The translations under genes and the position numbers were made by a program. The notes below the pieces were generated by a model. It was given only the letters and a program-made list of their open reading frames with translations, searched no databases and was not told the origin of the DNA. Shown here one piece after another: positions 1-7,805 of a stretch of 64,000 nucleotides of DNA. Where the stretch lies: contig CBDCXM010000009.1 of assembly GCA_965223855.1 (NCBI GenBank), positions 640,001 through 704,000 on the forward strand, in the 5' to 3' direction. This stretch comes from Candidatus Multivoradales bacterium (GTDB lineage: Bacteria > Acidobacteriota > Thermoanaerobaculia > Multivoradales > JAHEKO01). Position 1 is the first letter of the stretch; every line of letters begins with the position of its first letter.

Positions 1-1
1 C

Positions 2-472
2 ATGAACGTCACCGACCTGCGCCAGCTCCGCCGTCTCGGTAGCGGCCTTTTCACCGCCGCGCTGATCGTCCTCCATGCGCGCCTCCTGTGGAGCCGCTGG
101 AGCGACGGTTCGCTGTTCGAGCCCGGAGTGATCGCGCGCTGGTTGGCGTCCGCCGTGCTGCTGACGGCGATGCTCGCCCTCTACCGGCGCCACAGCTCGC
201 TCTTCTCCGGTCGCCGATCGGCGGTCCTGTGGCTTCTCGTCGCCCTGCTGCACGCGGCGGCGGGGATCACTCCGGTGGCGGCGACCGAGGCGACCTTGCC
301 GTGGCTGGCAGCGCCGACGCTCGCTCTCGCCCTCGCGGCCGGAGCGGCCGCGTTGCGCCCGCGAGAGCCTCAGCGGCTGGTACCGGTCGCCTTCGCCCGG
401 ACCTGCTCGCCCGGCCTGCCTCCGGCCGCAAGCCGGCGCCCCGCCGGCGCCCGCGCGCCGCCGCTCGTCTGA
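2..472 (+). CDS. 4-TM membrane protein ending in a RAPP motif; putative arrest-peptide leader of the TonB-dependent receptor locus
   Basis: 156-aa ORF with four hydrophobic segments, intramembrane His25 and His84, and a Pro/Arg-rich tail ending ...GARAPPLV-stop. The start is at the window edge, so upstream context is unseen. Confidence 0.7.
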   Translation: MNVTDLRQLRRLGSGLFTAALIVLHARLLWSRWSDGSLFEPGVIARWLASAVLLTAMLALYRRHSSLFSGRRSAVLWLLVALLHAAAGITPVAATEATLPWLAAPTLALALAAGAAALRPREPQRLVPVAFARTCSPGLPPAASRRPAGARAPPLV

Positions 473-565
473 GAGCCCCTGCCTGACGCTTCGCCGGCTT
501 TTCGTGCCGGCGGCCCCCCCGGGCTCCTCGCCCGGACGCTTCCATTTCCATTGGGAGAACCGATC

Positions 566-3547
566 ATGGCTCTCGAAGATCTGCATCGCGGCGTGCTCTA
601 CCTGCCCGCCGTCACGACACTGTTCTCGGCCTTCTTCAGCTACAACCTTTTTCGCCGCTATCGCGACAAGGGTGGCGGCGCCCACCTGCTGTGGTGGGGC
701 ATCGGCATGGTCACCTACGGCATCGGCACCTTCACCGAGGCGTGGACGTCGATCGCCGGTTGGCACCCCGCCGTGTTCAAAGCGTGGTACATCGCCGGCG
801 CCTTCCTCGGCGGCTACCCGCTCGCGCAGGGAAGCATCTTCCTGCTCATGCGGCGGCGCTTCGCCGTCGCTTCGGCGTGGATCGCCAGCGGCTTCATCCT
901 CGTCGCCTCGCTGTGCCTTCTGGCGAGCCCGATCGCCGTCGAACGGGCCCAGGAGTTCCGTCTGTCGGGCGACGTCCTCGAATGGGGATGGGTGCGGCTG
1001 CTCAGCCCGTTCATCAACATCTACTCGCTGATCTTCCTGGTCGGTGGAGCGATCGTCTCCGCGATCCGCTTTCGCCGTCACTCGAGCCTGCGCCACCGCT
1101 ACCTGGGCAACATCTGGATCGCCGTCGGCGCCCTGCTGCCGGGGATCGGCGGTTCCTTCACCCGCTTCGGCTACGTCGAAGCGCTCTACATCACCGAACT
1201 GGTCGGACTGCTGTGCATTTATCGCGGCTACCGGCTCAACATCCGCGACAGCTCGGCCGTCAGGGCCCGCGCCGTGGATCCGACCCCAACGGAGCCCGAC
1301 ATGTCTCCCGCCACCTCCCGACTCGCTCTGCTGCTCGCCCCCCTGCTCGCCCTCTCCATCCCACTGAGCGCGCAGGACGACGGCGCCTCGACCGAGGAGC
1401 CTGCGTCGTTCTTCGCCACCACCACGGTGACCGCCACCGGCTCCGAGATCGACACCTTCGAGATCGCCAATCCGGTGAACGTCATCACCGCCGAGGAGAT
1501 CGAGACGGTGGCGCCGCAGAACGCCTCCGACCTTCTGCGCTCCGAACCCGGAGTCGACGTGGACGGCGTCGGTCCCAACCAGTCGCGTCCGATCGTCCGC
1601 GGCCAGCGGGGACTGAGGGTCCTCTTCCTCGAGAACGGCCTGCGGATGAACAATCCTCGTCGTCAGACCGACTTCGGTGAGATCCCGGGCCTCGTCGACA
1701 TCGACGACGTCGCGGTGATGGAGGTCGTGCGCGGCCCGTCGTCCGTGCTTTACGGCAGTGACGCCATCGGCGGCGTGCTCAACCTGGTGACCCGCTCCGC
1801 GATCATCGGCTCCGATTTCGCCGGCTCGCTTTCCGGCCGCTACGCCTCTGCCGGCAGCGGCACGCAGTTCGGAGCCCACCTTTCCGGCGGCGGCGAACGC
1901 AGCGCCTGGAAGCTCTCGCTCACCGAGCGTTCGTTCGACGACTACGACGCCGCCGCCGGCAGCTTCGGCGCGATCGACCTGACGGACGGCGCCACGGTCA
2001 CCGACACCGGGCTCGACGACACGAGCGTGTCGGCCAGCCTCGTCTGGGCGCTCGACGACTCGAGCGACCTGCGCTTGCGATGGAACCGCTACCGCGCCGA
2101 CGACACCGGCTTCGGCTTCGTCGAACCGGAGCTGATCGGCGACGACTCCGGGGCCAGGATTCGCATCCTCTATCCGTTCCAGGACTTCGATCGGCTGGCG
2201 CTCTCCTACACCGGCAGCGACTTCGCGCTGCCGTGGATCGACTCGCTCGACGCCCAGCTCTACCACCAGAGCAACGAGCGCAACCTGGTCAACGACATCT
2301 TCATCGACATCGGCCCGATCGCGCCCGGCTTCCCGAACTCGTCGGTCCAGGCCGACACCGACAACTTCACCGATCTCGACTCGCTCGGCCTGCGTCTCGA
2401 AGCGGTCAAGAGCTTCGGCGGCCGCCACCTGCTGACCTACGGGGTCGAGGCCTACGAGGACGAGTCGTTCAACACCGACGCTTCCGTGACGACGACCACC
2501 ATCGCCTTCCCGTTTCCCCCGTTCGCCGTCGTCGACGTCCAGACCGACACCGTCGCCAACGCCCCCAACGCCACCAACTCGAGCGCCGGCATCTTCGCTC
2601 AGACGGAGCTGGCGGCGGGAGATCGCTGGAAGCTCACCTTCGGTGCGCGCTCACAGACAGTCGATACCCGCGCCGAGGCCACGCCCGGCTGGGACATCTC
2701 GGGCCTCGACTTCAGCGACAGCGCCACCGTCGCCTCGGCGAGCGCGCTCTTCCGCGCCAGCGACAACATTCACCTCTCGCTCGCCTGGGGCTCGGCGTTC
2801 CGCGCTCCGAACCTGATCGAGCGGCTGTTCAACGGCCTCACCCCGGAGGGGATCGGCTTCCAGATCCTCAACCCCGACCTGACGTCCGAAGACAGTGAGA
2901 CGGTCGATCTCGGCCTCAAGTACCGCCGCGCCGACACCCTCATGGAACTCAACCTCTTCCGCACCGACATAGACGACGGGATCGTGCAGTACTTCCTGAC
3001 CGGTGCCGACATCGCTGCGCTCCCCACCGACGTCCAGGACGAGATCGCCCAGAGCGGCGTCACCTTCGTCGTCCAGCAGCGCAACATCGACCGGCTGCGC
3101 TACGAGGGAGTGGAGCTCCTGGTTCAGCAGCGGCTCGGCAACGCCTGGACTCTCGGCGGCAACGCGACCTATCTCGACGCCGAGCGGCTCGACTCCGCCA
3201 ACCCGCCGACCGGCGACACCTTCGGCGAGAAGCTCAATCTGTTCGGCCGCTGGCAGCCGGACGGCGGTCGCGGCTGGGTCGAGTACCGGCTGCGGCACAA
3301 CGGCGGCGATCGCGCCAATCTCGATCCCGGCGAGCCGGTGCCCCCTGTCGGCCCCGAGCTGCCGTCGTTCACCGTCCACACCCTCGCCGCCGGCTACGAG
3401 GTCGGCACGACCGGACGGCTGCGGCACCATCTTGGTGTGGTGGTCGACAACCTCACCGACGAGCTCTACGCCGAGTTCTCGAACGCCGCGTTCTTCCGGC
3501 CGCAGCCGGAGCGCCGGGTGGTGGCGACCTACCGGCTGCGCTTCTAG
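566..3547 (+). CDS. 7-TM membrane domain fused in frame to a TonB-dependent receptor
   Basis: GGAG RBS before ATG 566 and no stop until 3547. The first ~230 aa hold seven hydrophobic helices; the rest is a TBDR. Confidence 0.75.
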   Translation: MALEDLHRGVLYLPAVTTLFSAFFSYNLFRRYRDKGGGAHLLWWGIGMVTYGIGTFTEAWTSIAGWHPAVFKAWYIAGAFLGGYPLAQGSIFLLMRRRFAVASAWIASGFILVASLCLLASPIAVERAQEFRLSGDVLEWGWVRLLSPFINIYSLIFLVGGAIVSAIRFRRHSSLRHRYLGNIWIAVGALLPGIGGSFTRFGYVEALYITELVGLLCIYRGYRLNIRDSSAVRARAVDPTPTEPDMSPATSRLALLLAPLLALSIPLSAQDDGASTEEPASFFATTTVTATGSEIDTFEIANPVNVITAEEIETVAPQNASDLLRSEPGVDVDGVGPNQSRPIVRGQRGLRVLFLENGLRMNNPRRQTDFGEIPGLVDIDDVAVMEVVRGPSSVLYGSDAIGGVLNLVTRSAIIGSDFAGSLSGRYASAGSGTQFGAHLSGGGERSAWKLSLTERSFDDYDAAAGSFGAIDLTDGATVTDTGLDDTSVSASLVWALDDSSDLRLRWNRYRADDTGFGFVEPELIGDDSGARIRILYPFQDFDRLALSYTGSDFALPWIDSLDAQLYHQSNERNLVNDIFIDIGPIAPGFPNSSVQADTDNFTDLDSLGLRLEAVKSFGGRHLLTYGVEAYEDESFNTDASVTTTTIAFPFPPFAVVDVQTDTVANAPNATNSSAGIFAQTELAAGDRWKLTFGARSQTVDTRAEATPGWDISGLDFSDSATVASASALFRASDNIHLSLAWGSAFRAPNLIERLFNGLTPEGIGFQILNPDLTSEDSETVDLGLKYRRADTLMELNLFRTDIDDGIVQYFLTGADIAALPTDVQDEIAQSGVTFVVQQRNIDRLRYEGVELLVQQRLGNAWTLGGNATYLDAERLDSANPPTGDTFGEKLNLFGRWQPDGGRGWVEYRLRHNGGDRANLDPGEPVPPVGPELPSFTVHTLAAGYEVGTTGRLRHHLGVVVDNLTDELYAEFSNAAFFRPQPERRVVATYRLRF
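1301..3547 (+). CDS. TonB-dependent receptor (internal start within the 566..3547 ORF)
   Basis: GGAG at 1291, ATG at 1301, signal peptide MSPATSRLALLLAPLLALSIPLSA-QD, TonB-box-like TTTVTAT, plug motif EVVRGPSSVLYGSDAIGGVLNLVT, FRAP and NPDL motifs, and C-terminal YRLRF. Confidence 0.9.
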   Translation: MSPATSRLALLLAPLLALSIPLSAQDDGASTEEPASFFATTTVTATGSEIDTFEIANPVNVITAEEIETVAPQNASDLLRSEPGVDVDGVGPNQSRPIVRGQRGLRVLFLENGLRMNNPRRQTDFGEIPGLVDIDDVAVMEVVRGPSSVLYGSDAIGGVLNLVTRSAIIGSDFAGSLSGRYASAGSGTQFGAHLSGGGERSAWKLSLTERSFDDYDAAAGSFGAIDLTDGATVTDTGLDDTSVSASLVWALDDSSDLRLRWNRYRADDTGFGFVEPELIGDDSGARIRILYPFQDFDRLALSYTGSDFALPWIDSLDAQLYHQSNERNLVNDIFIDIGPIAPGFPNSSVQADTDNFTDLDSLGLRLEAVKSFGGRHLLTYGVEAYEDESFNTDASVTTTTIAFPFPPFAVVDVQTDTVANAPNATNSSAGIFAQTELAAGDRWKLTFGARSQTVDTRAEATPGWDISGLDFSDSATVASASALFRASDNIHLSLAWGSAFRAPNLIERLFNGLTPEGIGFQILNPDLTSEDSETVDLGLKYRRADTLMELNLFRTDIDDGIVQYFLTGADIAALPTDVQDEIAQSGVTFVVQQRNIDRLRYEGVELLVQQRLGNAWTLGGNATYLDAERLDSANPPTGDTFGEKLNLFGRWQPDGGRGWVEYRLRHNGGDRANLDPGEPVPPVGPELPSFTVHTLAAGYEVGTTGRLRHHLGVVVDNLTDELYAEFSNAAFFRPQPERRVVATYRLRF

Positions 3548-3605
3548 CCCGGGCGAGGACCGGCTCCTCTCGCCGACCGTGGCCGTGGGACAATCGGCCG
3601 CGGCC

Positions 3606-5786
3606 ATGGTCGGCGAGACATTGCTCCACTATCGCCTGCTCGAACGCGCCGGCGCCGGCGCGATGGGTGAGGTGTACCGCGCCGAGGACCAGCGCCTGCG
3701 GCGCACCGTCGCCGTCAAGCTGCTGCCAGAGCGCTTCCTCGACGACCAGGCGCTGCTCGATCGCTTTCACCGCGAGGCCGAGACGCTCGCACAGCTCGAG
3801 CACCCGAACATCGTCACGATCTACTCGATCGATCAGGACCGCGGACGGCCGTTCCTCACCATGGCGTGGGTGGAGGGGGAGACGCTCGCCGCCGCGCTGC
3901 CGGCGGGTGGCTTCGAACTCGACCGCCTGCTCGAGATCGGGGTCGCACTCGCCGATGCGCTGGCCGCCGCCCACGCCAGGGGCATTACCCACCGCGATCT
4001 CAAGCCGGCCAACGTGATGCTGGCGGCCGACGGCTGCCCGCGGGTGCTCGATTTCGGGCTCGCCAAGTCTTCGGGAGTCGACCGGCCGGTCGACTCCGCG
4101 ACCGAGCCGTTGACCGAGCGGGGGATGGTGATCGGATCGCTCCCCTACATGGCGCCGGAGCAGGTGCGCGGCGGCATCGTCGATCCGCGCTCCGACGTCT
4201 TCGCTCTCGGAGTGATGCTGTACGAGCTGGCGACCGGTGAGCGGCCGTTCCGGGGCGCCACGGCCGGCGATCTGATCTCGGCGATCCTGCGCGACAGTCC
4301 GCGACCGGTCGACCAGATCCGTCCCGACCTGCCGCGTCAGCTCGCCAGGGTGTTGAGACGCTGCCTGCACAAGGATCCCGAGCGACGCTACGAGTCGGCA
4401 CGCGGGCTGCGCAACGCCCTCGAGGATCTGCAGACCGAGGTGCAGGCGGCCGAGGAGCGGGAGCGCATCACGGTCGCGGTGCTGCCGTTCGTCGACATGA
4501 GCCGCGAGAAGGACCAGGAGTACTTCTGCGCCGGCATTGCCGAGGAGATCGTCGGCGCTCTGGCGCGCCTCGAGTCGGTCTGCGTCGTGGCCCGCGCGTC
4601 GAGCTTCCAGGCGCGGGCCGGGGCGCTCGACCTGCGTGAGATGGGGTCGCGACTCGATGCCCAGGCGATCCTCGACGGCAGCGTGCGCAAGGACGGCGAC
4701 CGGGTGCGGATCAGCGTTCAGCTGGTCAACGTCGCCGACGGCTTCCACCTGTGGGCCGATCGCTACGACCGGGAGTTGACCGACATCTTCGCCATCCAGG
4801 AGGACATCGCCCAGCGGATCGCCGACGCTCTCGACGTCACCCTGTCACCGGCCGAGCGGCGATCGCTGCGCAAACCGGTGGCCGACATCGAGGCCTACGA
4901 TGCCTATCTGCGAGGGCGCCGCTTCACCGCGCTGACGACACGCTCCGGCCTCGACCGTGCCCTCGAGATGTTTCATCGGGCGATCGAGATCGACCCGGAG
5001 TACGCCCCGGCGTGGGCCGGCATCGCCGACACTCACTGCTGGCGCTACGGCTGGTTCGGATCGTGCGACGACAATCTCGAGGAGGCGGGGCGCGCCAGCC
5101 TCAGGGCGATCGAGCTGGCGCCGGAGTCCGCCGAGGCGCATGCTTCCCGCGGCTACGTGCTCTCCCTGCGCGGCTCCAGCGACGAGGCTGAAGGATGCTT
5201 TCGCCGCTCGATCGAACTCAACCCGAACCTGTTCGAGCCCTACTGGTACTGGGCGCGCGACCTCTTCACCCGCGGCGACTTCGCACCGGCGGTCGAACTG
5301 ATGGAGAAGGCGGCCGAGGTCGCGCCGCACGACTACCAGGCGCTGCTGCTCGCCCACAACGTGCACGACGCGCTGGGCAACGAGGAGCGCGCCGCCGAAG
5401 CGGCGAGAATCGGGCTCGAGCGGGCTCGTCGGGCGCTGGAACTCAACCCGCAGGACGCGCGCGCTCTCTATCTCGGCACCTTCCCGCTCTTCAATCTGGG
5501 ACGCCAGGAAGAAGCGTTCCGCAACGCCGAGCGGGCGCTGGCGATCGATCCCGAGGCACCGACGACGCTCTACAACGTCGGCTGCTTCTACGCTCTCGCC
5601 GGCCTTCGGGACAAGGCGCTCGACTGCCTCGAGAAGGCGAGCGAGGAGAATTTCGGCTTCAAGGCGTGGTTCGAGCACGACACCGATCTCGACTCTCTGC
5701 GAGACGAGCCGAGGTTCCAGGCGATTCTCGATCGGATGTCGGGCTCCGCCCACCAGGACGAAACGGGCTCAGCCCAGCCCGACTGA
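3606..5786 (+). CDS. Ser/Thr protein kinase with TolB-like and TPR domains
   Basis: GAGAMGEVY, VAVK, HRDLKPAN, DFGLAK and YMAPE motifs, then VAVLPF..MS..DQEYF TolB-like motif and TPR-like repeats. Confidence 0.93.
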   Translation: MVGETLLHYRLLERAGAGAMGEVYRAEDQRLRRTVAVKLLPERFLDDQALLDRFHREAETLAQLEHPNIVTIYSIDQDRGRPFLTMAWVEGETLAAALPAGGFELDRLLEIGVALADALAAAHARGITHRDLKPANVMLAADGCPRVLDFGLAKSSGVDRPVDSATEPLTERGMVIGSLPYMAPEQVRGGIVDPRSDVFALGVMLYELATGERPFRGATAGDLISAILRDSPRPVDQIRPDLPRQLARVLRRCLHKDPERRYESARGLRNALEDLQTEVQAAEERERITVAVLPFVDMSREKDQEYFCAGIAEEIVGALARLESVCVVARASSFQARAGALDLREMGSRLDAQAILDGSVRKDGDRVRISVQLVNVADGFHLWADRYDRELTDIFAIQEDIAQRIADALDVTLSPAERRSLRKPVADIEAYDAYLRGRRFTALTTRSGLDRALEMFHRAIEIDPEYAPAWAGIADTHCWRYGWFGSCDDNLEEAGRASLRAIELAPESAEAHASRGYVLSLRGSSDEAEGCFRRSIELNPNLFEPYWYWARDLFTRGDFAPAVELMEKAAEVAPHDYQALLLAHNVHDALGNEERAAEAARIGLERARRALELNPQDARALYLGTFPLFNLGRQEEAFRNAERALAIDPEAPTTLYNVGCFYALAGLRDKALDCLEKASEENFGFKAWFEHDTDLDSLRDEPRFQAILDRMSGSAHQDETGSAQPD

Positions 5787-5811
5787 AGACTCCTGTCGCG
5801 CCTCGAAAGCT

Positions 5812-5850
5812 CGAAAAGAAAGACGCCCGGCGTCGATTCGCCGGGCGTCT
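5812..5850 (-). terminator. Rho-independent terminator of the minus-strand ECF operon
   Basis: Perfect 12-bp stem AGACGCCCGGCG (5821-5832) / CGCCGGGCGTCT (5839-5850), followed by TTCTTTTC on the minus strand. Confidence 0.8.
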
Positions 5851-5878
5851 CGGGATCTCGAGGTCTGAGTGGCTCTGG

Positions 5879-6475
5879 CTAGTACTCGTCGCTCTCGGCA
5901 GCGGGCTTCGACTGATCCTGCTTCGCCTTCCAGATCAGGTAGCCGCCGAAGAGGATCAGCGCCACCGGCCACCACTCGTCGATCCAGTCGAGCGACATGT
6001 CGAAGCGGGTGTGGAGCAGCAGCACCGTACCGATGGCGGCGATCGTCGCTCCGGCGGGCACCGAACCGGCGAAACCGGGCATGCCCATGTCGGCGGGGAG
6101 CTCGAAGGCCGTCCGCCCGGCCAGCGCCTCGTTGATGAGGGCGGCGCGACGCCACGCATCGACGACGTTGTAGAGCCAGAAGAAGGCCAGGAACAGCCCG
6201 GCCAGTGGGATCAGCGGGCCCATCTCGCCGCTCGCAAGCAGCGTGATCGTCGTCGCCGCGACCGCCAGGTGGACGAAGCCGCGCTGGTAGTAGCCGGTGT
6301 AGACCTGGCCGAGGCCCGGCATCAGGGAGAGGAAGGCCGCGAGCAGCGGCGACTTGCGCTGCGGGTCGATCGCCGCCGGCATCGGCGGCAGCGCCCGGCG
6401 TTCGTCGGCGCGTTTCTCACGCGCCCGCTCGTGGCTGTCCTGGTGGTCGTTCATCTGCTCTTCGTGTTCGCTCAT
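5879..6475 (-). CDS. Membrane protein (TM2/LiaF-like) of ECF operon
   Basis: RKSPLLAAFLSLMPGLGQVYTG motif and C-terminal WWPVALILFG. Overlaps the anti-sigma stop by 4 bp. Confidence 0.75.
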   Translation of the reverse strand: MSEHEEQMNDHQDSHERAREKRADERRALPPMPAAIDPQRKSPLLAAFLSLMPGLGQVYTGYYQRGFVHLAVAATTITLLASGEMGPLIPLAGLFLAFFWLYNVVDAWRRAALINEALAGRTAFELPADMGMPGFAGSVPAGATIAAIGTVLLLHTRFDMSLDWIDEWWPVALILFGGYLIWKAKQDQSKPAAESDEY

Positions 6476-7236
6476 GGGTCCGTCTCCGTGGATTCGTGAG
6501 TCGCCTCTTCGGCGTTCTCAAGCAGGGACGCAGCCGAGTCCCACAAGGTTCCCAATCGTGATCCGGCCTCCTCCCACCATCCCTTCGCCTGCACCGCCGC
6601 CTCCTCGATCTCGGTCGCCGTCGACGACGCGCGAACGCGTTCGGTCCCCTGCCGCGTCAGCTCGGCGGCACGCTCCGGGACCGCGGCGAGCGGTGTCCCG
6701 GTAGCGCCGAGGAACACCACCACGAACAGCACTCCGACATAGGCGGCTTCGATAGCGAAGCGCGGACGGCGCACCCAGCGTGGCCAACTCTCGGCCCACC
6801 AGCGACGCGCCTTGATCGACCACGGCAGGGTCGCCGCCAGCACCTCGTCGACGAAGTCCCCGCCCGGATCGAGTTCGGCGAGCCAGGGCAGCTCGACCGC
6901 CAGGCGGGCGAGGGTGCGACGCAACTCCCGGCACGTGCCGCACCCCGCGGCATGCTCCTCGAGCAGAGCGGCATCGAGACGCTCGAGCGCACCGTCGATC
7001 TCCGCCGCCGCGAGCCGTCGCGCGGCCTCACAGCCGTCACCGGTCGCCGCCAGCACCGACGGCGCGAGATCGACCGGCTGCTCGTCATCCGTCATCGGCT
7101 CGAGCCGCGCCAGGCGCAGCAGCTCACCACAGCTCTCGCACCCGGCCGCGTGGTGCTCGCAGGCCGCGAGCTCGTGTCCGTCGAGTACACCCGCCTCGAG
7201 GGCCGCCAGTCGCAGCTCGAATCGACGGCAGTCCAT
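6472..7236 (-). CDS. zf-HC2 anti-sigma factor with two zinc fingers
   Basis: HHAAGCESC and EHAAGCGTC (HxxxCxxC twice), one TM helix, directly after the sigma factor. Confidence 0.85.
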   Translation of the reverse strand: MDCRRFELRLAALEAGVLDGHELAACEHHAAGCESCGELLRLARLEPMTDDEQPVDLAPSVLAATGDGCEAARRLAAAEIDGALERLDAALLEEHAAGCGTCRELRRTLARLAVELPWLAELDPGGDFVDEVLAATLPWSIKARRWWAESWPRWVRRPRFAIEAAYVGVLFVVVFLGATGTPLAAVPERAAELTRQGTERVRASSTATEIEEAAVQAKGWWEEAGSRLGTLWDSAASLLENAEEATHESTETDP

Positions 7237-7805
7237 CAGAGCGCCGCTCCGAAATCGGGATCGAGCCGGCGCACCAGATCGGCCAGTTCGAGCCGTGCAC
7301 GGTGAGAACGGGACTTGACGGTGCCGAGCGGCAGGCCGAGCATCTCGGCGATCTCGGCGAGCTTGAGCTCCTGGATGTCCTTGAGCTGGATCATCTCCCG
7401 GCTCTGTTCGCTCATCTCGCCCATGGCGCGGTAGAGGAGCGCCTTGCGGTCGCCCGCCATCGACTCGGCCTCCGGGGTCGGCTCGGAGGTCGGAAGCTGC
7501 GGAGCCTCTTCCACCGGCACTTCATGCTCCGGGGTTCGCACCTTGAGCCGTCGCAGACGGTCGATGCAGGAGTTGCGCGCCAGACGCAGCAGCCACGGCA
7601 TGAAGATCGCTTCGTCGTCGAGCCGATGGAGGTTGCGATACACCTTGACGAAGATCTCCTGCGCCGCGTCGCGCGCCTCTTCCCGGTCGCGCATGTAGGA
7701 GTAGGCGACGGCGTAGATCCGCCCCTGGGTGCGGCGCACCAGCGCCTCCCAGGCGAGGTCGTCGCCCCCCTTGCAGCGCTCGATCAGGTCTGAGACGTCG
7801 ATCAA
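7236..7805 (-). CDS. ECF RNA polymerase sigma factor
   Basis: Region 2 (DAAQEIFVKVYRNL, WLLRLARNSCID) and region 4 (EIAEMLGLPLGTVKSRSHRAR). TTG start chosen downstream of a GGAGGAGG RBS. Confidence 0.92.
   Translation of the reverse strand: MIDVSDLIERCKGGDDLAWEALVRRTQGRIYAVAYSYMRDREEARDAAQEIFVKVYRNLHRLDDEAIFMPWLLRLARNSCIDRLRRLKVRTPEHEVPVEEAPQLPTSEPTPEAESMAGDRKALLYRAMGEMSEQSREMIQLKDIQELKLAEIAEMLGLPLGTVKSRSHRARLELADLVRRLDPDFGAAL

Follow-up and report, generated by a model that had tools for sequence, protein, structure and literature searches.

The stretch of DNA analyzed here (64 000 nucleotides of contig CBDCXM010000009.1 in the assembly GCA_965223855.1 of a Candidatus Multivoradales bacterium, phylum Acidobacteriota; hereinafter, the window, with positions counted from its first letter) carries, close to its beginning, a gene in which an inner membrane domain with seven transmembrane helices (7-TM) runs without a stop codon into a TonB-dependent receptor of the outer membrane. 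The single open frame, evident from the window sequence and the translation of its open reading frames (ORFs), encodes 993 amino acids. Its ATG is preceded by GGGAG at 553-557, the frame is already open from position 473, and a TTG at 551 is an alternative start. The composition of the frame laid out in the original prediction, namely, seven helices, a short linker, a GGAG followed by an ATG, and a signal peptide-like segment ending in LSA|QD, is borne out by the sequence and by AlphaFold2 (AF2) modeling (Table 1).

Table 1. The fused gene and its parts, the gene upstream of it and homologous loci (window positions unless a locus is named)
Feature	Position	Strand	Source or remark
Whole fused frame: 7-TM domain, linker, internal signal-like segment and TonB-dependent receptor	566..3547	+	ORF (ATG 566 to TAG 3547), contig bridging
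7-TM inner membrane domain, residues 1-226, uncharacterized family	566..1243	+	AF2, Lys and Arg counts
Basic cytoplasmic linker, ~20 residues (227-245)	1244..1300	+	alignment columns, AF2
Shine-Dalgarno-like GGAG followed by ATG 1301, possible second start in the window genome	1291..1303	+	sequence
Internal signal peptide-like segment, residues 246-269	1301..1372	+	translation, alignment of 65 proteins
Acidic spacer followed by TTTVTATG, a TonB-box-like motif (residues 285-292, nucleotides 1418-1441)	1373..1441	+	alignment
Plug domain of the receptor, residues 299-404	1460..1777	+	PF07715
Receptor beta-barrel (Pfam match at residues 500-963) through to the last residue, Phe, and the stop codon	2063..3547	+	PF00593
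Small conserved membrane protein, ~156-170 amino acids	2..472	+	ORF; earliest possible start 41 nucleotides before the window
Homologs of the small protein	L021:4006-4539, L029:3869-4408, L020:3351-3950, L038:4363-4854, L054:2475-2960, L046:4213-4842		
CarboxypepD_reg-type fusions (G201, G078)	L074:2573-5566, L075:2343-5357	-	G201 without a canonical start before the signal-like helix

In the AF2 model of the 7-TM domain (44 relatives in the alignment; predicted local distance difference test (pLDDT) score 95.4, predicted template modeling (pTM) score 0.89), the seven helices span residues 13-34, 39-64, 68-94, 97-120, 146-169, 173-201 and 204-225. Lys and Arg residues are concentrated on one face, with four (RRYRDK), three (RRR), five (RFRRHSSLRHR) and six (after the last helix), compared with one, one, three and one on the opposite face, that is, 18 on the cytoplasmic side versus 6 on the periplasmic side. 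From this distribution, it follows that the N-terminus of the domain is outside and the C-terminus is in the cytoplasm, which, as originally proposed, is the right orientation for the signal-like segment that comes next. In the AF2 model of the full-length protein (pLDDT 87.1), the 7-TM module and the barrel are both confidently folded, and residues 229-252 and 259-278 score below 50, which suggests that the signal-like helix they flank is not packed into the seven-helix bundle.

The linker is basic and, judging by the column counts, hypervariable among the relatives. At its end, GGAG (1291-1294) is spaced by 6 nucleotides from the ATG at 1301-1303, which is followed by the segment MSPATSRLALLLAPLLALSIPLSA|QDD, with A269 ending at nucleotide 1372 and a predicted signal peptidase I site, LSA|QD, between nucleotides 1372 and 1373. 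The segment consists of an n-region with R252 and a 15-residue hydrophobic core (253-267), with Pro at position -4. All the hallmarks of a signal peptidase I substrate are present: the positively charged n-region, the short core, L-S-A|Q, and no Pro at position +1.

The rest of the protein shows highly significant similarity to the Plug domain (PF07715; E-value of 4.3e-22, 79.1 bits against the cut-off of 23.9) and the 22-strand barrel (PF00593; E-value of 5.1e-41) of TonB-dependent receptors, with the barrel confidently modeled by AF2 and the chain ending in RLRF, that is, with an aromatic last residue. The motif TTTVTATG, which we take to be the TonB box on the strength of the general consensus, includes V288, T289 and A290, all three invariant in the 65 fused proteins described below. 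The best NCBIfam model is that of the heme/hemoglobin subfamily TIGR01785, but its score of 204 bits is below the cut-off of 316.85; the sequence matches of the receptor in the PDB, namely, CirA, ShuA, PhuR and BtuB, are mainly over the plug. Where this protein departs from the TonB-dependent receptor family is in the location of the signal-like segment, which starts at residue 246, after the seven helices, and not at the N-terminus.

A fusion of this kind could, in principle, be an artefact of assembly or sequencing, or a decaying gene that lost its stop codon recently in a single assembly. The metagenome-type assembly from which the window comes is compatible with this explanation, and so is the internally deleted 7-TM part in G002, a genome of the same genus. 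The junction was checked against Logan contigs from four runs (X1 to X4, belonging to one study and at most two samples) over positions 400-1900. The X1 contigs cover this interval in its entirety and the X2 contigs cover 549-1900, in both cases with no differences from the window, and those of X4 cover 502-1789 with one substitution at 1672; the X3 contigs break at 1237, where the depth is 2, and this break is treated as a coverage gap. No insertion or deletion at the junction was detected in any of the four runs, and the contigs of X1, X2 and X4 bridge positions 1225-1300, the very region where the original prediction had allowed for an error.

The fusion is not private to this assembly. The 7-TM domain is encoded in 17 of the 41 related genomes, that of the window included (15 of the 24 other members of the family and 1 of the 16 other members of the order). 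A continuous frame that joins this domain to the receptor is present in 10 of the 16 other carriers (G003, G006, G012, G014, G017, G018, G020, G035, G010 and G002), two adjacent genes are found in four (G007, G009, G015 and G023), and the 7-TM gene has no receptor nearby in the remaining two (G008 and G013). In G035, the fused frame is cut off by the end of the contig, and in G010, it extends across two overlapping contig ends. In G002 (locus L033, ~5165-7707), an in-frame internal deletion joins helix 1 to helix 6; the three helices that remain, an odd number, are in frame with the receptor, and the locus retains an internal ATG preceded by GGAGG. A species-level scan of 25 loci, some of these from the same genomes, yielded six fused loci, four split adjacent ones, nine with no receptor in the flank and five from Gemmatimonadota; for L043, a fifth split locus located on a contig of G009, the flank is too short to show a receptor.

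Beyond these genomes, 74 proteins of 546-1738 amino acids in a large protein collection match the 7-TM part, including 65 full-length fusions of about 1000 amino acids that contain both Plug and barrel, two truncated ones, two remnants, one fusion with FecCD (P0219) and two fusions with an added CarboxypepD_reg domain (P0220 and P0221). The clusters of full-length fusions (65 in all, at 50-74% identity) come from several data sources, with the close relatives assigned, by their source names, to Thermoanaerobaculia within the phylum Acidobacteriota, and numerous residues are invariant across their alignment in the 7-TM half as well as in the receptor half. A second architecture, in which the 7-TM domain and the signal-like helix are followed by CarboxypepD_reg, Plug and barrel, is represented in another class of the phylum (Table 1). 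Separately, the metagenomic protein P0222 (564 amino acids) combines a partial 7-TM domain with a weak match to an AMP-binding enzyme and may be chimeric or misassembled.

Because the junction is reproduced with no insertion or deletion in contigs of the four runs and the fusion is found at only 50-70% identity in several genera and in a second class, the possibility of an assembly error or a recently lost stop, which the original prediction had entertained, is rejected, and we assign to it only a negligible probability. The 7-TM family is real and conserved, its own stop codon is absent here and the same frame recurs across many genomes, so that the fusion is beyond chance, and the feature is almost certainly genuine and conserved. 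That many related bacteria share the fused layout suggests that the product is made as one chain which is then cut apart.

The comparison of the fused and split loci is informative in this respect. In four split loci (L022, L030, L039 and L040), the stop codon of the 7-TM gene overlaps the start codon of the receptor gene in the form of ATGA; in two others (L028 and L038), there is a single in-frame TGA followed, after 15-22 nucleotides, by ATG; in L036, the junction consists of a TGA and ~17 nucleotides, in another frame. Therefore, one base change or a one-base insertion or deletion is enough to switch between the fused and split states. In a tree of the concatenated 7-TM and receptor parts without the linker (23 rows, rooted with Gemmatimonadota, quick search), the fused forms occupy the basal positions of the acidobacterial clade, and the fused/split label requires three changes, with at least two of these changes forced by well-supported branches; a tree of the 7-TM part alone (36 rows), which is weakly supported, agrees with the concatenated one. 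On these comparative data, the fused and split forms appear to interconvert, and because they do, the fused chain must yield the same working products as the two genes.

The gene order is reversed in the five loci from Gemmatimonadota (L052, L057, L058, L059 and L060), where the receptor gene comes first and the 7-TM gene comes next, abutting it or overlapping it by one base. There is no fusion in any of these five loci, which supports a polyprotein in the acidobacterial lineages because a polyprotein could not work in the reversed order. Further upstream, a HisKA_3 histidine kinase is encoded in L059, L057 and L052, and L059 also encodes a LuxR-type response regulator.

When the 65 fused proteins are aligned, a single column of the linker is conserved, that of the predicted -1 position (aligned to A269), which is occupied by Ala in 63 proteins and by Gly and Ser in one each. 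The -3 column includes 26 Ala, 16 Leu, 15 Val and 4 Ser, one each of Thr, Gly and Pro, and one gap, and 63 of the 65 proteins have a small or aliphatic residue there; Pro and Gly are frequent at positions -3 to -5, and the +1 residue is never Pro. In 63 of the 65, Lys or Arg is present no more than eight residues ahead of the core, the median length of the uncharged stretch is 21 residues, and the 20 residues after the predicted site include a median of five acidic residues and no basic ones. As far as the sequences go, this column pattern is that of a cleaved Sec signal peptide, conforming to the -3/-1 rule of signal peptidase I (PMC9360617). Two signal peptidase I genes and a gene for BamA, all above the cut-offs, are present in the genome from which the window comes, along with seven matches to TonB_C.

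The original prediction also considered dual translation starts. Under this explanation, the receptor would be produced only from ATG 1301, with an ordinary signal peptide, and the read-through from 566 would be a tolerated by-product that supplies nothing except the 7-TM function. In the window genome, the GGAG 6 nucleotides ahead of the ATG makes such initiation possible, and 10 of the 16 fused loci for which DNA is available have an ATG ahead of the core or at its beginning, in several cases with a purine-rich motif upstream. However, translation initiated at 566 runs through without encountering a stop, so that the fused chain would be made anyway. Moreover, there is no Met between the last helix and the core in 43 of the 65 fused proteins, and three of the 16 loci (G012, G017 and G201) lack ATG, GTG and TTG in this region, with CTG and ATH missing as well in two of the three, and yet the receptors are intact and conserved. 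In some lineages, the fusion is, by all appearances, obligate, and these sequences show a cleavage-type site that was apparently kept by selection where no start codon remains. The dual start explanation might thus hold for the window genome but is not a general one, and we consider it unlikely.

It is also conceivable that the protein is not cleaved at all and spans both membranes, with the eighth helix anchoring the N-terminus of the receptor and the barrel tethered to its inner membrane partner. AF2 indeed predicts a helix at residues 248-262, and the hydrophobic segment is separated from the TonB box by 17-52 residues (median 34) of acidic, low-complexity sequence. In the window protein, however, the predicted site is separated from the TonB-box column by just 17 residues, which, given the general dimensions of the envelope, is too short to cross the periplasm. 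Furthermore, the near-invariant small residue at -1 and the preceding Pro or Gly are traits of cleaved signals and not those of anchors, and in the split relatives, the receptor is untethered. An uncleaved, tethered protein accordingly seems quite improbable.

In our assessment, which rests on sequence comparison, the gene is reasonably likely to encode a natural polyprotein that signal peptidase I splits into two products, an inner membrane protein and an outer membrane receptor. This possibility, one of those raised in the original prediction, is favored by the comparative evidence, in particular, the start-less relatives, the -3/-1 motif in the 65 fused proteins and the interconversion of the fused and split forms; the cleavage itself we infer. 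Translation would start at 566, and the seven helices would be inserted co-translationally into the inner membrane, leaving the C-terminus of the domain in the cytoplasm. The signal-like segment would then enter the Sec channel as the eighth span, with its N-terminus inside and its C-terminus outside, and initiate the export of the receptor part, ~720 residues in length. Signal peptidase I would cut after LSA, at residue 269; the 7-TM protein would remain embedded in the inner membrane and retain the signal segment as a final helix, and the released receptor would be folded into the outer membrane by the beta-barrel assembly machinery (BAM). The end products would be equal to those of the two-gene version in the relatives.

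Several considerations weigh against this scenario. All the genomes involved are metagenome-assembled genomes of uncultured bacteria, and the Logan contigs come from one study, possibly the source of the assembly itself. The window genome retains the GGAG and the ATG at 1291-1303, so that the receptor could be made separately. The conserved Ala column at -1 was obtained by aligning a hypervariable region with MAFFT, and the aligner may have sharpened it; the quick tree is modestly supported, with 7 of the 20 branches starred. Finally, we found no tested precedent for the export of an outer membrane protein behind a polytopic domain. For the broader proposition that this group of Acidobacteriota routinely makes an outer membrane beta-barrel as a passenger at the C-terminus of a polytopic inner membrane protein, from which it would be released by signal peptidase I, we see about even chances.

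The 7-TM part does not match any family in Pfam or NCBIfam, and yet the family is large, with 909 representatives in the protein collection at E-value ≤1e-3 and 4334 stand-alone matches among the proteins of 134-429 amino acids, all of them unnamed or annotated as 'hypothetical'. A Foldseek search of the PDB with the 7-TM domain produced no match at E-value ≤0.001. The matches in the VIA structure search are generic seven-helix bundles similar to those of G protein-coupled receptors (GPCRs), with the best one to the 7-TM domain of the GABA-B receptor (Z-score of 15.7, root mean square deviation of 3.5 Å over 215 residues), and their Z-scores are within the range reported as common for helical bundles. 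Given that the structural matches are generic, the function of the 7-TM protein cannot be deduced from its fold. In the ESM Atlas, the domain is closest to unnamed clusters (0.97-0.98), and the nearest named cluster, with the score of 0.83, carries HisKA_7TM (PF16927); five of the 44 family members match PF16927 weakly (best E-value of 2.9e-5), and the window protein shows no match to it at E-value ≤1. No internal repeat was detected in the domain (an hhalign comparison of helices 1-3 with helices 5-7 gives a probability of 0.8%), and there are no SWEET or Pnu-type 7-TM transporters, with their 3+1+3 repeat, among the VIA matches listed.

In two metagenomic proteins, P0219 (567 amino acids) and P0007 (563 amino acids), the same 7-TM domain is N-terminal to a FecCD permease of the ATP-binding cassette (ABC) type (PF01032, E-value of 1e-73). 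No genome among 301 searched from the phylum has both halves of this fusion in one match (three of these genomes, G063, G088 and G189, are flagged as unpublished, and none of the conclusions depends on them); it is known solely from P0219 and P0007, and links the family to import of the iron, heme or corrinoid type. There are three independent ties of the 7-TM family to TonB-dependent transport: the fusion with the receptor, the adjacency in the reversed order and the fusion with FecCD. Between the two fused receptor subfamilies, the barrels are 26-28% identical and the 7-TM parts are 47-48% identical. The 7-TM protein and the receptor probably act in one TonB-dependent pathway of uptake or sensing, in which the 7-TM protein would be responsible for the inner membrane step, be it transport or sensing.

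The gene immediately upstream of the fusion encodes a small conserved membrane protein (Table 1) that matches no Pfam family and contains two invariant His residues, H39 and H98, and a C-terminal R-x-P-P motif. Its homologs immediately precede the 7-TM gene in the fused loci of G000, G003, G014 and G020, the split locus L038, and the stand-alone loci L046 and L054, a distribution that was traced through synteny and alignment alone; a word-based search with this protein returned two matches, one of which is its own entry from the window. The small gene is probably the first one in the same operon, and its product is a candidate third component of the system. A scan of window positions 1-3800 identified no promoters and no terminators, and in the Rfam scan of 4 kb at the start of the operon, no riboswitch was found, with a sub-threshold hit to a microRNA family being the sole match. 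Directly downstream of the fused gene, at 3606-5786 on the forward strand, there is an ORF that, from its translation, seems to encode a large Ser/Thr protein kinase with TPR-like repeats at the C-terminus; a kinase-TPR protein, identified with Pfam, also flanks the stand-alone 7-TM gene in L047.

The original prediction regarded the fusion of a polytopic inner membrane domain with an outer membrane barrel as unusual, and this seems to hold: no account of an inner membrane domain fused to a TonB-dependent receptor was found in the literature covered, from which most subscription journals are missing. The nearest precedent is FbcH, in which cytochrome b is fused with c1, as described for most Bradyrhizobiaceae (PMC4986455). 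As in the present case, a polytopic inner membrane protein and an exported partner share one frame; the difference is that the exported part of FbcH is anchored in the same membrane and the same complex, whereas here it is a barrel of ~720 residues destined for the other membrane, and the families involved are unrelated to those of FbcH. In the work of Thony-Meyer, the b-c1 fusion is reportedly separated at an internal signal-like sequence. Chains that combine polytopic segments with exported domains are also typical of the polyproteins of flaviviruses and hepatitis C virus (HCV), in which the signal peptidase of the host cleaves behind internal signals (PMC7601889, PMC5402940); those, however, are viral proteins processed in the eukaryotic endoplasmic reticulum, and the present case involves a cellular bacterial gene with a product bound for a second membrane.

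Among the receptors themselves, an extra N-terminal module in front of Plug and barrel is found in the extended forms with the signaling domain of FecA and FoxA (for the N-terminal extension of FoxA, see PMC11658791) or with CarboxypepD_reg, as in Oar-like proteins, and some relatives of the fusion likewise carry CarboxypepD_reg. In these extended receptors, the module is a soluble periplasmic domain that follows an N-terminal signal, whereas in the fusion, a seven-helix domain precedes an internal signal. Operons that combine a receptor with an inner membrane protein resemble the arrangement in the relatives, with the four ATGA overlaps and the upstream receptor gene of Gemmatimonadota, but here there is a single frame, and the partner is outside the described transporter families. 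The likeness of the domain to HisKA_7TM, the N-terminal region of histidine kinases, and to GPCR-like bundles consists in the seven helices, with the N-terminus out and the C-terminus in, and is limited by the lack of a PF16927 match in the window protein. The receptor and the use of an internal signal are familiar; for the architecture, and for the outer membrane protein route that it implies, there is no known counterpart.

Outer membrane proteins are post-translational Sec substrates with N-terminal signals. If the polyprotein interpretation is correct, the textbook picture would change, in that some lineages would make a receptor solely behind seven helices, and the route through Sec, signal peptidase and BAM would not only tolerate an internal signal after a polytopic domain but would be under selection to accept it. 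Biogenesis of this kind, in which the precursor of a barrel is targeted co-translationally by the helices of its partner and the signal peptide survives as the eighth helix of the latter, would be a route not described before, and the fusions would provide a natural system for the study of internal signal peptide cleavage in bacteria. The fused proteins are annotated merely as 'TonB-dependent receptor', which hides the inner membrane half. The present observations tie an unannotated 7-TM family to TonB-dependent transport. They would also offer the first clue to the function of this large family, as the inner membrane half of a TonB-dependent uptake or sensing unit that extends over two membranes.

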